From positions 14,587 through 78,586 of the forward strand of contig CAWJWC010000004.1 in assembly GCA_963846515.1 (NCBI GenBank): 64,000 nt of DNA, read 5' to 3'. Position 1 is the first letter of the stretch. Each line of letters starts with the position of its first letter. The notes beneath the pieces were generated by a model that searched no databases, was not told the origin of the DNA, and saw only the letters and a list, made by a program, of their open reading frames with translations. Shown here piece after piece: positions 5,789 through 64,000 of the stretch. The stretch comes from an uncultured Solirubrobacterales bacterium (GTDB lineage Bacteria; Actinomycetota; Thermoleophilia; Solirubrobacterales; 70-9). The translations under genes and the position numbers were made by a program.

Positions 5789-8359
5789 TTGAACGCGGGG
5801 CGGTGGTTCGGCCGCGTCGCGGCGTGGGCCGCCGGCCATGCGCGGGCGGTCTTGGTCGTCTCGGCTCTGCTCGCCCTCGTCGCGGCGCTGGGGGCGACGC
5901 GGATCCCGACCGACGCCGGGGTCGGGACGCTGACCGACACCGACGCCGAGACTTACCGGGCGACGCAGGAGGTGCGCGACGCCTTCGGCGAGGAACCGGT
6001 CGTCGTGCTGGCGGCCGGGGACCTGCAGGAGATGATCCTCGGCCCCGACCTGTTCCAGCTGCTGCGGCTCGAGGGCTGCCTCTCGGGGAACGTCCCCAAA
6101 GGCGCCGAGCCGATTCCCGGACCCTGTGCCGAGCTGGCCCGGCTCGACCCGGTCGAGTTCGTCGCCGGGCCGGCGACCTTCCTCAACGAGGCGGTGGTCC
6201 AGATCGACCGCCAGCTGCGCCGGCTCTCGCAGCGGATCTCGCCGGGGGCGTTCCGCGAATTCCTGCTCTCGGTCGCGACCCGCTACGGCATCACCACCCT
6301 GCCCACCCTCGACAACCCGGAATTCGTCGCCACCGCCGTCTTCGATCTCAGCCGCGCCCGCAGCACGCCGAAGGCGCGGCTCTCTTACCTCTTCCCGACC
6401 GGCCGCTCGGCCCAGATCGTGGTCCGGCTGAGGCCGGACTTGAGCGCAGCCGAACGCGAGCGGGCGCTGGAGCTGATCGAGGCGGCGGTCGAGGAGACGA
6501 CGCCGCGCAAGGCCTGCGCCACTGAGCGGAAGGGCGAGCCGGCGCCCTGCTTCGAGCTCGACGGGGGCACGTACCTGGTCTCCGGCGCGCCGGTCGTCGT
6601 CGACGGACTCGCTGAGGCCCTGGAGGAGGCGCTGCTCGTCCTCTTCGCCGTCGCCGTCGCCGTCATGGCGGCGACCCTGCTGCTCGTCTTCCGCTCGCGC
6701 CTGCGGCTCCTCCCGCTCGCCCTCGCCCTCGTCGCCGCGGCCCTGACCTTCGGCCTGCTCGCCCTCAGCGGTGGCGCCCTGACCATGGCCACGATCGCCG
6801 CCCTGCCGATCCTGATCGGCCTTGCCGTCGACTACGCGATCCAGTTCCAGGCCCGCTTCGACGAGGCGATCGACGGAGGCGCTTCAAATGCCGACGCAGC
6901 TCGGCAGGCCGCCACCGCCGGAGCCCCCACCATCGCCACCGCTTGCCTGGCGACGGCCGCGGGCTTCCTAGCTCTCCAACTATCCCCGGTCCCAATGATC
7001 CGCAGCTTCGGCCTCTTGCTGATCTTGGGCGTCGCCATCTCCTTCCTGCTCACCCTTGTAGCCGGCTCCGCCGCACTCAGCTTGCGATCCGCCGGCGGCG
7101 GGAGGAACGCGCTCCTCGGGCGGGTGGCGCGGGGAGGGGTCCGAGAACGGACACACTTGCCCGCCCGCAGGACCCCTCCCCGGGACAGGACCCGCCCGCC
7201 AGAGCGCGCTGGACCCGGCGTGGGCAGCTGGCTCCGCGACTGGTCCCTCTGGCTAGCCCTCGAGCACCGCGTCCCGGTGCTTGCCGTCGCCGTGACCCTG
7301 GCAGCCGCCGGCTGGGCCGCCGGAACCCAGGTCGAGACGACGTCGGACATCCGCGACCTCGCACCCCAGAGCCTCGACGCCGTCGACGACCTCAACCGGT
7401 TGCAGGAGACGACCGGGGTCTCCGGCGAGCTCGACGTCAGCGTCGTCGCCCCCGACCTGACCGCCCCGGCGACGATCGGGTGGATGGCTGCGTTCAAGCA
7501 GCGGGTCCTGCGCGAGAACGGGTTCAGCGGCGAAAACCCGAGCTGCCTCGAGGCCGACCTCTGTCCCGGCCCGGCGCTCTCCGACTTCCTCACCCGCGGC
7601 GATGACGAGCTGACCCGTAGCGGCATCGACGCGACGCTGGCGGCGCTCTCGCCCTATGCCTTGCGGCAGGTGGCGCCGCTCGATCCCGAGCGCGGCGAGA
7701 TCGGGCGGCAGGCCCTGCTCTCGTTCGGGATCCGGGCCCAGTCGCTGGAGGACCAGCAGGCGCTGGTCGACCGCGTCCGCGCCGCGATCGGCGAGCCCGA
7801 CACCCCCGAGGGCCCGCCCAAGGGGGTCGAGGTGCGGCTCGCCGGCCTGCCGGTGATCGCCGCCGAATCGGCGACCGACCTCTCCGCCAGCCGCTACTGG
7901 CTCACCCTCGCCGGCCTGCTCGCCGTCGGCTTGGTCCTGCTTCTGGCCTACCGTTCGCCAGCCCGGATCCTGATCGCCCTCGCTCCCGCCGTGCTGGCGA
8001 CCGGGTGGGCATCGCTGATCCTCTGGCTCAGCGGCGTCCCGCTCAACCCGATGTCGGCGGCCCTGGGAGCGCTGACGCTCGCCATTGCGACCCAGTTCGC
8101 GGTGATCCTCAGCGGCCGCTTCGAGGAGGAGCGGCGCGCCGGGCGCGACCTCGACGAGGCGCTGGAGCGGGTCTACGGGCGCACCGGGGCTGCTGTCTTC
8201 GCCTCCGCGGCGACCGCGATCGCCGGCTTCGCGGTGCTGATCGTCAGCGACGTGCAGATGTTGCGCGACTTCGGCATCGTCACCGTGATCGACCTGGCCG
8301 TGGCGCTGCTTGGGGTGATGCTGGTGCTGCCCGCGGCGCTTTCATGGGGAAGAGAATGA
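5789..8359 (+). CDS. MMPL/RND-superfamily transporter (HpnN-like)
   Basis: 856 aa with two TM bundles separated by soluble domains. Carries the LAVDYAIQF-type RND motif. The start is 1 nt after the ATPase stop. Confidence 0.85.
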   Translation: MNAGRWFGRVAAWAAGHARAVLVVSALLALVAALGATRIPTDAGVGTLTDTDAETYRATQEVRDAFGEEPVVVLAAGDLQEMILGPDLFQLLRLEGCLSGNVPKGAEPIPGPCAELARLDPVEFVAGPATFLNEAVVQIDRQLRRLSQRISPGAFREFLLSVATRYGITTLPTLDNPEFVATAVFDLSRARSTPKARLSYLFPTGRSAQIVVRLRPDLSAAERERALELIEAAVEETTPRKACATERKGEPAPCFELDGGTYLVSGAPVVVDGLAEALEEALLVLFAVAVAVMAATLLLVFRSRLRLLPLALALVAAALTFGLLALSGGALTMATIAALPILIGLAVDYAIQFQARFDEAIDGGASNADAARQAATAGAPTIATACLATAAGFLALQLSPVPMIRSFGLLLILGVAISFLLTLVAGSAALSLRSAGGGRNALLGRVARGGVRERTHLPARRTPPRDRTRPPERAGPGVGSWLRDWSLWLALEHRVPVLAVAVTLAAAGWAAGTQVETTSDIRDLAPQSLDAVDDLNRLQETTGVSGELDVSVVAPDLTAPATIGWMAAFKQRVLRENGFSGENPSCLEADLCPGPALSDFLTRGDDELTRSGIDATLAALSPYALRQVAPLDPERGEIGRQALLSFGIRAQSLEDQQALVDRVRAAIGEPDTPEGPPKGVEVRLAGLPVIAAESATDLSASRYWLTLAGLLAVGLVLLLAYRSPARILIALAPAVLATGWASLILWLSGVPLNPMSAALGALTLAIATQFAVILSGRFEEERRAGRDLDEALERVYGRTGAAVFASAATAIAGFAVLIVSDVQMLRDFGIVTVIDLAVALLGVMLVLPAALSWGRE

Positions 8360-60110: not shown

Positions 60111-60169
60111 GGATTGGGGAGCACCCTCCGTCGCAAATCTGGAGGCTCCTCCGGGTCCTCTCCAATCCC
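60110..60169. terminator. GC-rich extended hairpin between convergent genes (possible bidirectional terminator)
   Basis: GGGATTGG(60110-17) pairs with CCAATCCC(60162-69). There are further internal pairings (CCTCC/GGAGG). No clear U-tract. Confidence 0.45.
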
Positions 60170-61050
60170 TATCCCCGGAGCACGCGCCGGCGACGCAGCA
60201 CCCTCTCGCAGAGCTCGAGTAATTCCCTGACCTGGGTGGCCTGGTCGACATCGAGCTCGTTCTCGAGGGCTGTGTTCGCTGCCTCTCCAGCCTCGAAGCG
60301 ACGATTGCTGAGCGCCCCCATGTCCTCCTCGTGCCCGGGGTCGGCGAGTGCCCCCTTTAGCTCGATCAGCAGCGCCTCGAGCCCGACCCGCAGCTGCAGC
60401 GCCGCCTCGCGCTCGCGGCCGCCGTCGAGGTCGGCGCGGGCGCGCAGCAGCAGCGTCTCGCAGGCGTCGAGCGACTCGCGGCTGCCCAGCACGCCGGCGA
60501 CCCGTTCCTGCGGGCGCAGGTCTTCCTCGCGCCTCCGCCGGCGCGAGGCGCCGCTGGACCAGACGTCGACCTCGCGGGCGTCGCTGAAGGTGCTCTCGGC
60601 GATCTCCTCGCCGCTGCCATAGCCGATTCGCACGGTCACGGCCCGCTCCGGCCGCACCTCGTGGCCGTAGGGGTCGGCGCCGGCGACGGCTTGGGCATGC
60701 AGGGCACGGTTGAGGAGGCGGACACCGTCGGCGACCAGGGTGTCGACGGTGTCCTCGGCCTCGGTCGCCTCGTCGAGCCAGCGCGTGGCGTCATCCTCGC
60801 TCGCGAGCGGGACGGAGGCGCGCACCACGGTCACGCGAGTGAGCGGCAAGGGGGAGGGGCTGGCCTCCGGCTCAGCCCTGCGCGGGCGCCGTCGGCGCCG
60901 CATCGGAGGCGACGGCGCCCCCAGCGTGCGTACCACCAGCACGCTCTCCCCCTCGACCTCGTCCCGCATCAGGTAGCGGCCGTCGGCCAGCGGCAGGGTG
61001 CCGGCGAAGTCCAACTGCGCAAATCCGAAAAGCTTGCTCAAGCGGGCCAT
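60169..61050 (-). CDS. hypothetical protein (293 aa), Arg-rich linkers, helical C-terminal half
   Basis: Long high-GC3 ORF with its ATG at 61050. I recognise no motif. Confidence 0.6.
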   Translation of the reverse strand: MARLSKLFGFAQLDFAGTLPLADGRYLMRDEVEGESVLVVRTLGAPSPPMRRRRRPRRAEPEASPSPLPLTRVTVVRASVPLASEDDATRWLDEATEAEDTVDTLVADGVRLLNRALHAQAVAGADPYGHEVRPERAVTVRIGYGSGEEIAESTFSDAREVDVWSSGASRRRRREEDLRPQERVAGVLGSRESLDACETLLLRARADLDGGREREAALQLRVGLEALLIELKGALADPGHEEDMGALSNRRFEAGEAANTALENELDVDQATQVRELLELCERVLRRRRVLRG

Positions 61051-61078
61051 TCTCTACCTCCGCTCGGATCGGTGCGGG

Positions 61079-61227
61079 GAGGGGAGTCGGGGGTGCCCGT
61101 GGGTGAATTTGTCGCCCGCCCTGCGGGCGAGGCTCCCGATGTTGCTGCGCGCCTATGGCGCGCAAATACCGGATTGCATTTCCGCCGCTTCGCGACATTC
61201 CCCCACAGGCACCCCCGACTCCCCCCA
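61079..61227 (-). repeat. structured element family 3, copy E1 (about 149 nt; candidate ncRNA / cis-element, minus orientation)
   Basis: Outer arms GGGGAGTCGGGGGTGCCCGTGGGTGAAT and ATTCCCCCACAGGCACCCCCGACTCCCC. The internal core is homologous to the reverse complement of E2. It lies 28 nt upstream of the start of 60169..61050. Confidence 0.7.
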
Positions 61228-61352
61228 ACGACACGGACACCAGCAGCGCTGAAGGGACGGCAGCTGCTCCGAGAGATCGGCTGGTTCGAGCGCCTGGTCG
61301 TCGGAGCTTGCCTTGTGGCATAGCTGAGTGAGTCATGCGAAGCGTTTCGTGG

Positions 61353-61499
61353 GGAGGGGTCTGGTCGTCCTCCGAGCGAATGTCCGCGAAGCGCGCGATA
61401 TGCATTTTGATATTTGCCCGCCATAGGCGGGCTCTCTCTGGGGGAGCTATCCCCTTTAGGGGATGCGACAAATTCATCGGAGGATGACCAGACCCCTCC
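61353..61499 (+). repeat. structured element family 3, copy E2 (about 147 nt; plus orientation)
   Basis: Outer arms GGAGGGGTCTGGTCGTCCTCCGA and TCGGAGGATGACCAGACCCCTCC give 23 bp with one G-T pair. The core GAATGTCCGCGAAGCG...TATTTGCCCGCCATAGGCGGGC...GCGACAAATTC is shared with E1. Confidence 0.7.
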
Positions 61500-61515
61500 T
61501 CGCAAAGACTCGAAC

Positions 61516-63831
61516 TTATTCGCTGCTGGTGCCGCCGCTGGACTTCTGCTTGTCCGGCAGCGAGAACTCGGACGGCTCGATCGGGACCTCGGGATTTTCG
61601 ATCTGGCCGAGGCGGTCGATCAGGCGCTGCCACTGGTCCGGTTTAAGCAGCGCCGAATACTGGGCCTCGAACCTGCCCTCGACCGGGTTGTATCCGACAT
61701 GGACGTGGTCGTGGTGGTCGGCCATCGCGATGCTGGTCGGGCCCGGCAGGTCCTCGAGCGAGATCACCTGGTGCGGGTGCATCGTGCCCTGCAGCAGCAG
61801 CAGCTCGCGGATCAGGTTGCCGGCCAGCGTGCCGGGGCCCTGGTTGCCAATCACCGGCACGCCGTTGATCGCGGCGATGTCGACCGCGTCGCCGGTGCTG
61901 TGCTCGGAGACGTTGCCGGAGGCGGTGAGATAGCCATGGCCGCAGGTGAGCGAGGTGATCGTCAGCTCGAACCCTTTGGTCCGCAGGTACTCGAGCATCG
62001 CGAGGATGCGGCGGTCGGTGAAGCCGCTGGCGATGTCTTCGCGACCGCACTGGTAGATCGAGAGGCCCTCGTCGGCCAGCACCCGCTTCTGCAGCGCCTC
62101 CTTGGAGAGCAGCAGCACGCCGGCCCCGCTGAGTCGGTCGGTGAAGGGGTTCTCGCCCTTTGCGCGGTAGATCGCGGTCGCCTCGAGCAGCTTCCAGCCG
62201 TCGAGGATCGGCTTCGGGTCGATCCGCGGCGCGCCGCGCCCGGCCGGGCGGATCGAGAAGTTGACGTGGGGGTCGACGCCCTCGGCACTGACGCCGATCC
62301 GGGCCAGCACGGTGCCGGCGATCACTTTTGAGCCGACCCGCAGGGCGCCGTTGGTGGCGGCGAGCTCGGCGCTGTCCGTGGCGAGCGCTTCGTCGCTCTG
62401 CTCGCTGTCGGTGGCGCGCTCGGGCAGCGCCCGCAGCCGCGGCCGCAGGTTCTCGCTTTCGACCGGGAGCCGCTGCTCTTTGCCAGTCGGCATCACCACC
62501 AGGCGCTCGCTGCGGACGATCTCGCCCAGCTCGGCGTAGGTGTAGCGGTTGCCGTAGGTGTCTTCGAGGACGACGAACTTACCCAGCTGCGGCGAGCTGC
62601 CGAGCTTGCGGATCGTGCCGTCGTTGACGGCGACGACCGGCGCGCCCTGGCGGGAGAAGATATTGATGCCGCGCCGGGTCGGCGAGGAGGAAATGACTTC
62701 TGCCGCGTTGCCGTAGGACTCGCGCTTGGCGCTGGAGCTGGCCAGCGCCGCCCGGGCCGAGATGTCGTCGGCGTAGCGGGCGTCGGCGGCGACCGGGAAG
62801 TGGGCGCCCTCGGTCAGGCCGGTCAGCGAGCCGACCAGGTCGGAGGGCAGTTTCCCGTAGGCGCGCGCGTAGAGCAGCACCTCCTGCACGTACCAGTCGG
62901 CGTGGTTGTAGGCGAAGATTGCGTCGTAGAGGTCCTTCTTGCCGCCGGCGATCTCGAGGTAGTTCGCGGCGGCGCAGATAGCGTCGACCGGGTTGTAGGG
63001 GTCCTTGCGACCGTCGCCGTTGGCGTCGACGCCGAAGGCCTCCCAGCTCGAGGGCAGGAACTGCATCCAGCCGACCGCGCCGGCGCTGGAGACGTTGAGG
63101 TTGGTCCCGAAGGCGGTCTCGATTTTGTTGATCGAGGCGAGCACCTCCCAGGGGATCCCGTATTCGGTGCCGCAGGCCTGGTAGATCGGCAAGAGGAAGG
63201 GAGGAATCTCGAAGGAGTCGATGACGAAGTTGGGGACGCCGATCGGGGCCGGACCGAAGGGGGCGATCGTCGTCGTCGCGTTGGCCGTGGTCGGGGTGCC
63301 GCCGGTGGCGAACTGAGAGCCCCCGTCGCCCCCCTCGGCCAGCGGCTGATCGCCGTTGCCGGTTGCGCTGGGGGCGTCGACCCCGCCGTCGTTGCCGCTG
63401 CCGCCACTGCTGTCTCCAAGGCTCGAGTTGTGGTTGACCCCTCCGTCGAAGATCTTGGCTTCGTTGTCGCCGCCGCCGATCGAGGCGCCCCGCTCGGTCG
63501 CCGGGGCGCCGCCGGGGCTGGTCGGAGCGGCGGCCGGCGGCGTGACCGGTGCGGCCGGCGTCGCGGGAGCCGTCGGGACCGCCGATTCGGGCGCCTCGTT
63601 GACGTCCTCGGGGGCGGCGCAGTCGGGATCGGCGATGTCGATCAGGCCGTCGCCGTCATCATCGAGCGCGTTGGCGCAGGCCGGCGCCTGCAGCGAGGGG
63701 ACTTCGGTCGTGGTGGTCGCCCCCACCGAGGCGCTTGGGCTGAGCGAGTCGGCGCCGGCCATGCCGACGCCAAGCGCGGACAGTGCCAGGAAGCTGGCGA
63801 GTACGACGATCAGTGCGATCTTGGCTCTCAT
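61516..63831 (-). CDS. secreted three-domain cell-wall hydrolase: SLT lytic transglycosylase + M23 (LytM) peptidase + LAS/M15-like metallopeptidase
   Basis: ATG at 63831 with a signal peptide. SLT: INKIETAFGTNLNVSSAGAVGWMQFLPSSW. M23: VVAVNDGTI...GNRYTYAELG...HVNFSIRP. C-terminal: SEHSTGDAVDI...DHHDHVHVG (H-x-D ... H-x-H). Confidence 0.85.
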   Translation of the reverse strand: MRAKIALIVVLASFLALSALGVGMAGADSLSPSASVGATTTTEVPSLQAPACANALDDDGDGLIDIADPDCAAPEDVNEAPESAVPTAPATPAAPVTPPAAAPTSPGGAPATERGASIGGGDNEAKIFDGGVNHNSSLGDSSGGSGNDGGVDAPSATGNGDQPLAEGGDGGSQFATGGTPTTANATTTIAPFGPAPIGVPNFVIDSFEIPPFLLPIYQACGTEYGIPWEVLASINKIETAFGTNLNVSSAGAVGWMQFLPSSWEAFGVDANGDGRKDPYNPVDAICAAANYLEIAGGKKDLYDAIFAYNHADWYVQEVLLYARAYGKLPSDLVGSLTGLTEGAHFPVAADARYADDISARAALASSSAKRESYGNAAEVISSSPTRRGINIFSRQGAPVVAVNDGTIRKLGSSPQLGKFVVLEDTYGNRYTYAELGEIVRSERLVVMPTGKEQRLPVESENLRPRLRALPERATDSEQSDEALATDSAELAATNGALRVGSKVIAGTVLARIGVSAEGVDPHVNFSIRPAGRGAPRIDPKPILDGWKLLEATAIYRAKGENPFTDRLSGAGVLLLSKEALQKRVLADEGLSIYQCGREDIASGFTDRRILAMLEYLRTKGFELTITSLTCGHGYLTASGNVSEHSTGDAVDIAAINGVPVIGNQGPGTLAGNLIRELLLLQGTMHPHQVISLEDLPGPTSIAMADHHDHVHVGYNPVEGRFEAQYSALLKPDQWQRLIDRLGQIENPEVPIEPSEFSLPDKQKSSGGTSSE

Positions 63832-64000
63832 CCCAGTGCGCCTCGACACCCGGGGTCTCGGACCACGGAAACTGCGCAAAGCGCAGCTGCGTCCTCCCTC
63901 TGCCGCAGGCGAGCCGAGGCTACTGGGTCCCCCAGAGGGGCGCAACGGTCGTGGGGCTCCCCCAACAAGGCCTTAATCAACATTGACGTTATTCTTGATC

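Follow-up and report, generated by a model that had tools for sequence, protein, structure and literature searches.

A head-to-head pair of branched palindromic repeats in an uncultured Solirubrobacterales bacterium and a possible REP- or TRIT-like family at gene ends

Palindromic repeats at the ends of genes are well studied in Proteobacteria but hardly so in the uncultured soil Actinomycetota that dominate many soils. ERIC/IRU, RIME and Correia elements are intergenic mosaic repeats of 100-200 bp that form long imperfect hairpins once transcribed and exert orientation-dependent effects on neighbouring mRNAs; they are conserved over their full length or at their termini, and several carry target-site duplications. 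In the integron attC site, the bottom strand is the recombinogenic one. TRIT (Tuberculosis Rho-independent terminator), a sequence-conserved palindromic repeat present in 147 copies at gene termini of Mycobacterium tuberculosis, is reported to be restricted to Mycobacterium (PMC3152330). Here we describe a pair of inverted repeats, E1 and E2, found in a 64-kb stretch of DNA (the window) from an uncultured Solirubrobacterales bacterium. We assign a probability of about one half to the reading that E1 and E2 form a head-to-head doublet of a dispersed Solirubrobacterales repeat family, comparable to REP/BIME/REPIN or TRIT repeats and under selection at gene ends. The family appears to be previously undescribed, being absent from Rfam 15 and from the literature that we found.

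Alignment of the reverse complement of E1 with E2 matched the central ~100 nt and recovered every sequence block on which the initial annotation had based its claim of two inverted copies with a shared core. A repeat search detected the core match as two segments (I1, 48 nt, 79%; I6, 19 nt, 84%) and showed the outer stems to be self-complementary (I3 in E1, 28 nt, 93%; I2 in E2, 30 nt, 87%) and mutually unrelated, so that each unit consists of a ~95-nt conserved core inside an unrelated 23-bp stem. A 22-nt block of the core, TATTTGCSCGCCATAGGCGSGC, occurs exactly twice in the window, where no occurrence is expected. E1, a full repeat unit, lies at 61079..61227 with its folding sense on the minus strand, and was scored at 159.4 bits by R1, a covariance model built from four copies, and at 147.0 bits by R2, the refined model. 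E2 lies at 61351..61501 with its folding sense on the plus strand (138.3 bits with R1, 128.8 bits with R2). The 5' ends of both units face a spacer at 61228..61350. Fold stability was compared with that of dinucleotide shuffles on both strands, using RNA and DNA energy parameters. RNA folding of E1 and E2 beat the shuffles on either strand (z-scores of -8.2 to -9.5), the fold of E1 having an energy of -106.5 kcal/mol (z -9.45) and that of E2 -92.2 kcal/mol (z -9.15), and folding with DNA parameters gave z-scores of -7.5 to -8.9, again on either strand.

The same architecture can be traced through both units. On the plus strand of E2, the 5' arm of the closing stem P1 (61353..61375) pairs with the 3' arm (61477..61499), as seen in inverted repeat I2 and in the fold. 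Inside it, the nearly invariant GAAU of P1b (61378..61381) pairs with AUUC at 61472-61475 and is followed by hairpin P2 (GU-CCGC-GAA-GCG-C-GC, 61382..61396), whose closing G-C and U.G pairs are invariant in the family. The conserved junction GAUAUGCAUUUUG (61397..61409), present in alignments A4 and A6, leads to hairpin P3 (GCCCGCC-AUA-GGCGGGC, 61416..61432, helix 6) and then to a segment (61443..61469, helices 7 and 8) comprising GGAGC, hairpin P4 (AUCCCC-UUUA-GGGGAU) and GCGAC. In the minus sense of E1, the P1 5' arm (61202..61224) pairs with the 3' arm (61081..61103), supported by I3 and the fold; P2 is GUCGC-GAA-GCGGC (61184..61196), supported by the fold, the alignment and the P2 counts of the family; and P3 (UGCGCGCC-AUA-GGCGCGCA, 61146..61164) and P4 (CGCCCGC-loop-GGGCGGGCG, 61113..61129) are supported by the fold and by helix statistics.

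A search of the whole window against Rfam 15 at gathering thresholds gave no matches, in agreement with the initial annotation, which had recognized no known Rfam family. At permissive thresholds, positions 60900-61700 matched only microRNA-hairpin models, the best being MIR1437 at 40.1 bits against a threshold of 168. No match was obtained when the region was compared by blastn with plasmid and phage collections, nor in two pattern scans of viral contigs, and a literature search on repeats and structured RNAs in Solirubrobacter and Conexibacter returned nothing.

Loci around the gene next to E1, which encodes a protein of 293 amino acids, were fetched from 80 species, and a pattern derived from the conserved junction blocks was used to find further copies; at least 120 soil metagenome contigs were among the matches listed. 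The metagenome counts given below rest on 120 contigs from this listing (the first 80 and another 40). Alignments of 28 and of 120 copies were made, the latter scored with a curated structure, and the P1 arms of 126 copies were aligned against each other independently of the covariance model. The unit is 150-165 nt long and consists of the P1 stem, P1b and a junction with the three hairpins P2-P4 and invariant unpaired bases. Over the 120 copies, 93.8% of the cells of the structure pair and 46 of its 50 pairs show double changes (1,052 cells), figures that are somewhat inflated by the fitting of this alignment to the model. None of 500 shuffles reached these values, and sliding the 3' partners by 1-3 columns reduced pairing to 39-54%. 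Compensation was also seen in the arm-against-arm analysis and in the raw sequences. The proposal that one strand has a conserved fold whose helices change in sequence while continuing to pair is therefore borne out by covariation throughout the family.

The closing stem is the most changeable part of the unit. In the arm-against-arm alignment P1 has a mean length of 31 bp and is perfect in 37 of the 126 copies; its outermost part is semi-conserved (GGAGGG/CCCUCC) and its middle is freely variable. Double changes were found at all 19 pairs of the main P1 helix among the 120 copies, and at one orthologous site the same P1 segment reads TGGCGACC/GGTCGCCA, TGGGGACC/GGTCCCCA or TGCCGACC/GGTCGGCA in different species. 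Near-perfect pairing in the face of such fast turnover indicates either strong selection for the duplex or correction of one arm by the other through DNA template switching. A further short helix outside P1, termed P0, can form between the bases directly 5' of P1 and the 3' flank.

Within the closing stem, P1b (GAAU/AUUC, helix 3) is paired in 97.5% of cells. P2 starts with GU and ends with GC in 117 of 117 copies, which gives an invariant U.G closing pair; its loop is GAA in 84 copies, and its stem alternates between CGC/GCG, GGCC/GGCC, GCGC/GCGC and CGCC/GGCG. The junction has the consensus GA(A/U)AUGCAAUCYG. P3 is an 8-bp hairpin with the loop AUA in 77 copies and UUUA in 20, and shows double changes at 8 of 8 pairs, with 94.9% of cells paired. 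P4 is flanked by conserved GGAGC on its 5' side and GCGAC on its 3' side and has the loops GCA, GAA, UUUA or UUCA; helices 7 and 8 are 95-98% paired, and helix 8 shows double changes at 6 of 6 pairs. The two covarying hairpins of the initial annotation, which correspond to P3 and P4, are thus real and covary across the family. Its inner helix fared less well: the GAAU/AUUC part holds as P1b, but the adjoining GUCGC/GCGAC pairing was rejected because GUCGC sits in P2, whose stem covaries within itself (CGC-GAA-GCG, GGCC-GNNA-GGCC, GCGC-GAA-GCGC) while GCGAC stays unchanged. Copies with an AUA loop contain a micro-open reading frame (MQSxxCxP*) that starts at the AUG of the junction and stops at a UAG in the P3 loop; copies with other loops have lost it, and it was judged coincidental.

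The strand on which the unit folds can be read from its imperfect pairs. In P1, transition mismatches in the sense of the model comprise 56 G.U or U.G pairs against 21 A.C or C.A appositions (binomial p = 8e-5), and these counts were unchanged after similar stems had been collapsed. They were taken from the structure-independent arm-against-arm alignment; the wobble counts on the model-fitted alignment, together with a seeming U.G at A6 columns 25/198, were discarded, being in part artefacts of register. P3 is biased in the same direction (8 versus 1), although this count comes from the model-fitted alignment and is likewise partly a register artefact. Read on the opposite strand, the invariant U.G pair of P2 becomes a C.A mismatch. 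In the window, the transition mismatches of the outer stems are G-U on the strands that had been named for them (minus for E1, plus for E2), as stated. A further T/C mismatch in E1, described as pairing on neither strand, is indeed present; in the minus sense it is a G.A apposition, which recurs just outside P1b in 43 of the 126 copies. Because of the wobble bias and the invariant P2 U.G, the folding strand is the one antisense to the gene that the unit abuts, and this is the chief unexplained feature of the family; the strand assignment that the initial annotation had drawn from two mismatches thus holds throughout the family. Transcription-associated deamination from the abutting gene would produce the opposite wobble bias. 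P1 is symmetric in sequence and forms in transcripts from either direction; the core alone is polar.

The position of the units relative to genes is equally biased. Within 150 nt of the 3' side, 84 units face the stop codon of a convergent gene and 19 a start codon, and in 66 cases the stop lies no more than 40 nt away (median, 18 nt). The 5' side is occupied by a partner unit in 74 cases and almost never has a gene within 40 nt. Among 68 adjacent pairs, 65 are arranged head-to-head (minus-plus), two are plus-plus and one is plus-minus; the head-to-head loci comprise 28 and 26 from the metagenome contigs and 11 genome loci, the window included. Since doublets are equally frequent between tandem and convergent genes, the doublet is a property of the element and does not represent the separate hairpins of two converging genes. 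Single units are mostly the stop-proximal member. Doublet spacers measure 49-327 nt, mostly about 100-125 nt. In the window, the 3' end of E2 lies 14-16 nt from the stop codon (61516-61518) of the convergently read cell-wall hydrolase gene (61516..63945, minus strand; Pfam SLT, SLT_2 and Peptidase_M23), and the 3' end of E1 lies 28 nt before the start codon (61050) of the 293-aa conserved hypothetical gene (60169..61050, minus strand), distances that had been given correctly. E2 beside the SLT/M23 stop codon is the typical placement of the family, and E1 is its partner in a tandem-gene setting; the 293-aa gene is outside the element and its association with it is incidental.

Some loci depart from the simple doublet. 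Locus L200 (9100-9817) contains four units in the order minus, plus, minus, plus, with 19 nt between the inner 3' ends, and provides the sole tail-to-tail junction. In locus L084 (424-2620), the members of a doublet are 1.9 kb apart and enclose two co-oriented open reading frames (139 and 384 aa) that show no relationship to the ATP synthase gene beside them, which suggests that DNA is insertable into the doublet spacer; a transposase within this wide doublet was considered and rejected, the enclosed frames being unrelated. The same intergenic regions also contain repeated copies of a second, much smaller hairpin, GTGGTTCCTTT...AAAGGAACCAC, frequently within or next to doublet spacers (L089 380-418, L120 684-722, L138 10926-10964, L146 12047-12085 and L176 543-581, with similar sequences in L087 and L092).

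The family is dispersed. It comprises at least about 200 copies, 30 in the genome loci around the 293-aa gene and ~170 on the 120 soil contigs (103 on the first 80 and 67, on the sense strand, on the other 40). The nearest flanking open reading frames fall into 74 clusters, and 119 flanking proteins match 126 Pfam families, among them ATP synthase epsilon, ABC transporters, histidine kinases, Orn/Lys/Arg decarboxylase, histidine biosynthesis proteins, IlvC, RNase J and sigma-70. Several of the flank clusters are found on more than one contig, and the same sites are therefore occupied in related organisms. The window is chromosomal DNA, and the genes surrounding its pair also have housekeeping roles (HAD hydrolase, Sir2, FadB-like and type III glutamine synthetase).

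The initial annotation had implied a link between the element and its locus, and above all the 293-aa gene; this link is not sustained. The 293-aa protein has more than 3,700 homologues, named only in metagenome-assembled genomes of Solirubrobacterales, and no Pfam domain; its family is marked by an invariant RRRRR(P/A)R stretch and a C-terminal CER(V/I)LRRRR(V/I) motif. The gene order SLT/M23, 293-aa gene, HAD is conserved, but R1 detected the element here in no more than 17 of the 80 loci, a result matched by an independent search for long inverted repeats. Locus L002, which shares its contig with L036, has both elements at the same positions with different closing stems, one of them of 30 bp and perfect. 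Two more copies lie elsewhere near the 293-aa gene, that in L040 on its downstream side and that in L078 upstream of a PNP gene. In L021, whose protein is the closest to that of the window on the 293-aa protein tree, the intergenic region is 45 nt long and contains no element, and within one large clade of the tree some members have the element and others do not, so that it has no fixed tie to the 293-aa gene. On the first 80 element-bearing soil contigs, none had the 293-aa gene adjoining the element and two had an SLT gene. In L001 (4904-6000; contig shared with L006), the intergenic region between the SLT and 293-aa genes contains, instead of the doublet, one gene for a GNAT acetyltransferase and another for tRNA-Arg(TCT) (5848-5921, minus strand). 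In L002, the called start of the 293-aa homologue at 6001 falls inside the element (5866-6016), and protein alignment places the true start further downstream.

Where copies are orthologous, they outlast their surroundings. Orthologous copies are full-length, with compensated stems, in species whose 293-aa proteins are 70-80% identical. The spacer between the two members has only 54% column identity among orthologues, and spacer similarity remained detectable in 10 of 106 pairs of loci from the same site. That elements are kept while the adjoining spacer decays points to selection that probably acts on them in place. The possibility that a doublet and its spacer move together as one conserved unit was rejected, spacers being mostly unrelated even at orthologous sites. 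Core identity reaches a plateau of ~0.76 in orthologues and paralogues alike; within a doublet it rises to as much as 0.91, a sign of gene conversion between the inverted members. Altered copies were also observed. In L003 (9548-9690), the 5' arm and core are intact and the P1 3' arm is missing, an apparently decaying copy, and in the SLT-proximal positions of L024 (9547-9656) and L043 (9536-9658), there is a shorter hairpin, whose outer stem (~25 bp) is perfect and of the local type and encloses an unrelated ~60 nt in place of the core.

These results suggest a model in which the doublet is the unit that arises and persists, and in which single units would mostly be stop-proximal survivors. 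P1, forming in transcripts of either direction, may act as a 3'-end cap, a pause site or an insulator hairpin between transcription units, and a protein specific to the family may dock on the model-sense strand at the asymmetric conserved junction. One candidate for this protein is an RNA-binding factor that meets transcripts coming towards the gene end from outside; an equally plausible one is a strand-specific DNA enzyme of the RAYT or HUH type that copies the element. Both roles, that of P1 and that of the junction, are what we infer and not a demonstration.

Several observations weigh against a gene-end repeat of this kind. The folding strand is antisense to the abutted gene, and a simple role as the terminator of that gene leaves the asymmetric core unexplained. 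Neither flank contains a U-tract or T-run, both being rich in C and G, so that P1 is not a canonical intrinsic terminator, and a terminator scan found nothing at E1 or E2. In M. tuberculosis, Term-seq showed that TRIT-type motifs overlap few mapped termination sites (10.1101/2022.06.01.494293). Nineteen units, E1 among them, abut a start codon. In REP and REPIN repeats the arms are conserved and the loop is variable, the reverse of what is seen here. No RAYT-like or other transposase was found, the 25 commonest flanking Pfam families included, genome-wide searches for one not having been part of this analysis. Finally, R2 added no copies when 1.5 Mb of sequence flanking the 293-aa gene was searched, and the density of the family is therefore probably modest, at tens of copies per genome.

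The main rival, which is compatible with a gene-end repeat under selection, is a selfish mobile element that folds as single-stranded DNA, either a giant REPIN/PATE-like doublet copied by a strand-specific Y1/HUH enzyme or an attC-like recombination site, and in which the fold would serve transposition or recombination and have no function as RNA. We consider it possible but would hold to it only tentatively. Dispersal and the dominance of head-to-head doublets fit such an element, as does the flanking sequence: target-site duplications, which HUH, IS200/IS605 and RAYT systems do not produce, were absent, the longest flanking direct repeats averaging 3.9 nt against 4.0 nt in controls for single units and 3.7 against 3.7 nt for doublets. 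The folding strand is the template strand of the abutting gene, like the bottom strand of attC. Most hairpin loops are triloops of the form C-GNA-G, and the sequence GCGAAGC within P2 is known to form an exceptionally stable DNA mini-hairpin; the good folding obtained with DNA energy parameters, the patchy presence at the SLT/293-aa site and the 1.9 kb of unrelated genes inside the L084 doublet are all consistent with mobility. This evidence must be set against the lack of any transposase or integrase beside the copies, or among those commonest flanking families, and against the persistence of old orthologous copies that stay intact while spacers decay, which argues for selection at each locus and not for neutral decay. 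There are no co-oriented arrays and no attC R/L boxes, and phage, plasmid and viral collections lack the element. A bolder proposal, which we regard as rather unlikely, is that the conserved four-way-junction core, with its freely varying stems, is the recognition or catalytic module of an undescribed system. This could be an element of a new class, folding as single-stranded DNA and copied by a strand-specific enzyme that targets gene ends, or else a polar module of RNA (an insulator, processing site or ribozyme, for example) through which transcripts entering the 3' end of a gene are acted on; if this were true, the family would be more than another REP-like hairpin.

Alternatively, each unit could be an independent small-RNA gene, transcribed divergently from a promoter in the spacer and ending at its own P1. 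The 5'-to-5' layout around a ~100-nt spacer suggests divergent transcription, and the sense-strand wobble bias fits its direction. Furthermore, ~40 nt of the 5' side are conserved among orthologues and some paralogues, and a CGTGTC-like motif with 5 or 6 of 6 positions matching stands directly before P1 in 62 of the 126 copies, accompanied in a few copies by TGAACC 19 nt upstream. CGTGTC resembles the -10 element CGTGNC(A)AG of M. tuberculosis sigma-L (PMC6372665). The promoters themselves, however, are poorly represented: no sigma-70-like promoter was found in the window spacer, a TANNNT -10 box occurs in the 45 nt upstream of only 3 of the 126 copies, and the CGTGTC-like motif is confined to about half of the copies. 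The usual spacing between the -35 and -10 elements of extracytoplasmic function (ECF) promoters is 16-17 nt, against 18-20 nt for the candidate here. An ECF-type promoter of the form TGAACC-N19-CGTGTC was accordingly not accepted, a handful of copies with an over-long spacing making it a lead only. Moreover, the bases of the CGTGTC region can form P0 instead, the units lack a U-tract, and it would be unusual for small-RNA genes to exist in dozens of near-identical copies set against stop codons. Independent small-RNA genes therefore seem improbable.

Other sequences recur around the units on the side where such promoters were sought. GTC(C/T)C, often as CCGTCCCGG, is enriched in the 45 nt 5' of P1 (38 of the 126 copies) and is found in some 3' flanks as well; examples are window positions 61262-61270 (CCGTCCCTT, minus strand) and loci L132, L153, L108 and L109. 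In one subfamily, ~40 nt of the 5' flank (CGCACC/GAACC...GGCCGTCCCGG...GCGTGTCG) are common to different genomic sites.

A classical miniature inverted-repeat transposable element (MITE), the non-autonomous derivative of a DDE transposon, would likewise be dispersed, and the unit is a long inverted repeat whose outermost GGAGGG/CCCUCC is semi-conserved. Such an element is nevertheless very unlikely, as the initial annotation had argued: the direct repeats that flank single units and doublets do not exceed those of controls, conservation is higher in the interior than in the arms and lowest of all in the middle of the arms, every helix shows compensatory change, and copies are kept at orthologous sites across species. 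A cis-regulatory, riboswitch-like leader of the 293-aa gene, with E2 as a decoy, would account for the sense orientation of E1 28 nt upstream of that gene and for the same arrangement in about 15 related species, but is refuted for practical purposes by the distribution of the family, in that 63 of the 80 orthologous loci have no element, the gene stands beside the element on none of the first 80 contigs, stop codons are abutted four times more often than starts, and a closing stem of 23-31 bp leaves no room for switching.

The family is unusually large and elaborate in structure, with covariation as strong as that of bona fide structured RNAs, strict polarity and an antisense folding strand. 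The usual accounts, a terminator hairpin or a selfish palindrome, do not explain this combination, which could point to a dedicated protein partner. The covariance model also allows annotators to mask or label the units in Solirubrobacterales metagenome-assembled genomes and so to avoid miscalled riboswitches, small RNAs and open reading frames, such as the gene start placed inside the element in L002.

Compared with known systems, the family recalls structured RNAs of Rfam in its conserved junction nucleotides and variable helices, and ERIC/IRU, RIME and Correia elements in its similar size and intergenic position, but we know of no family of the ERIC, RIME or Correia type that has a conserved multi-hairpin junction with varying stems, or obligatory head-to-head doublets. 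Its likeness to the integron attC site lies in its place right after a stop codon, in a structure that is kept while the sequence varies and in a folded strand complementary to the coding strand. In contrast, attC sites form co-oriented cassette arrays alongside intI and attI, and the base of their stem carries conserved R/L boxes, whereas the present copies are single units or inverted doublets beside housekeeping genes, and their alignments contain no RYYYAAC/GTTRRRY boxes at the stem base. Like TRIT, it is a lineage-restricted actinobacterial palindrome at gene termini that lacks a U-tract and for which a protein factor is suggested (PMC3152330). TRIT, however, is a short hairpin of simple form whose centre falls near position -8 from the stop codon, and it is described as largely bidirectional (PMC3152330); the present element is 3-4 times longer, branched, placed a median of 18 nt beyond the stop, polar and arranged in doublets. 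It has no sequence relationship to TRIT, and as a gene-terminal palindrome it resembles TRIT by functional analogy only. REP units are simple hairpins of 20-40 nt with conserved arms and a conserved 5' tetranucleotide, and the units described here, at 150-165 nt and branched, are not short, simple palindromes; the doublet spacer of ~100 nt and a host among the Actinomycetota also set them apart. With the REP, BIME and REPIN repeats of Proteobacteria, which are linked to RAYT proteins, they nonetheless share an extragenic, multicopy and palindromic nature and a location just behind stop codons or between genes, as well as inverted doublets, singlets that appear to be remnants, the lack of target-site duplications and compensated stems. 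It is these repeats, with their copies in unrelated contexts, their placement at 3' ends and their inverted doublets, that the Solirubrobacterales family resembles in its organization.

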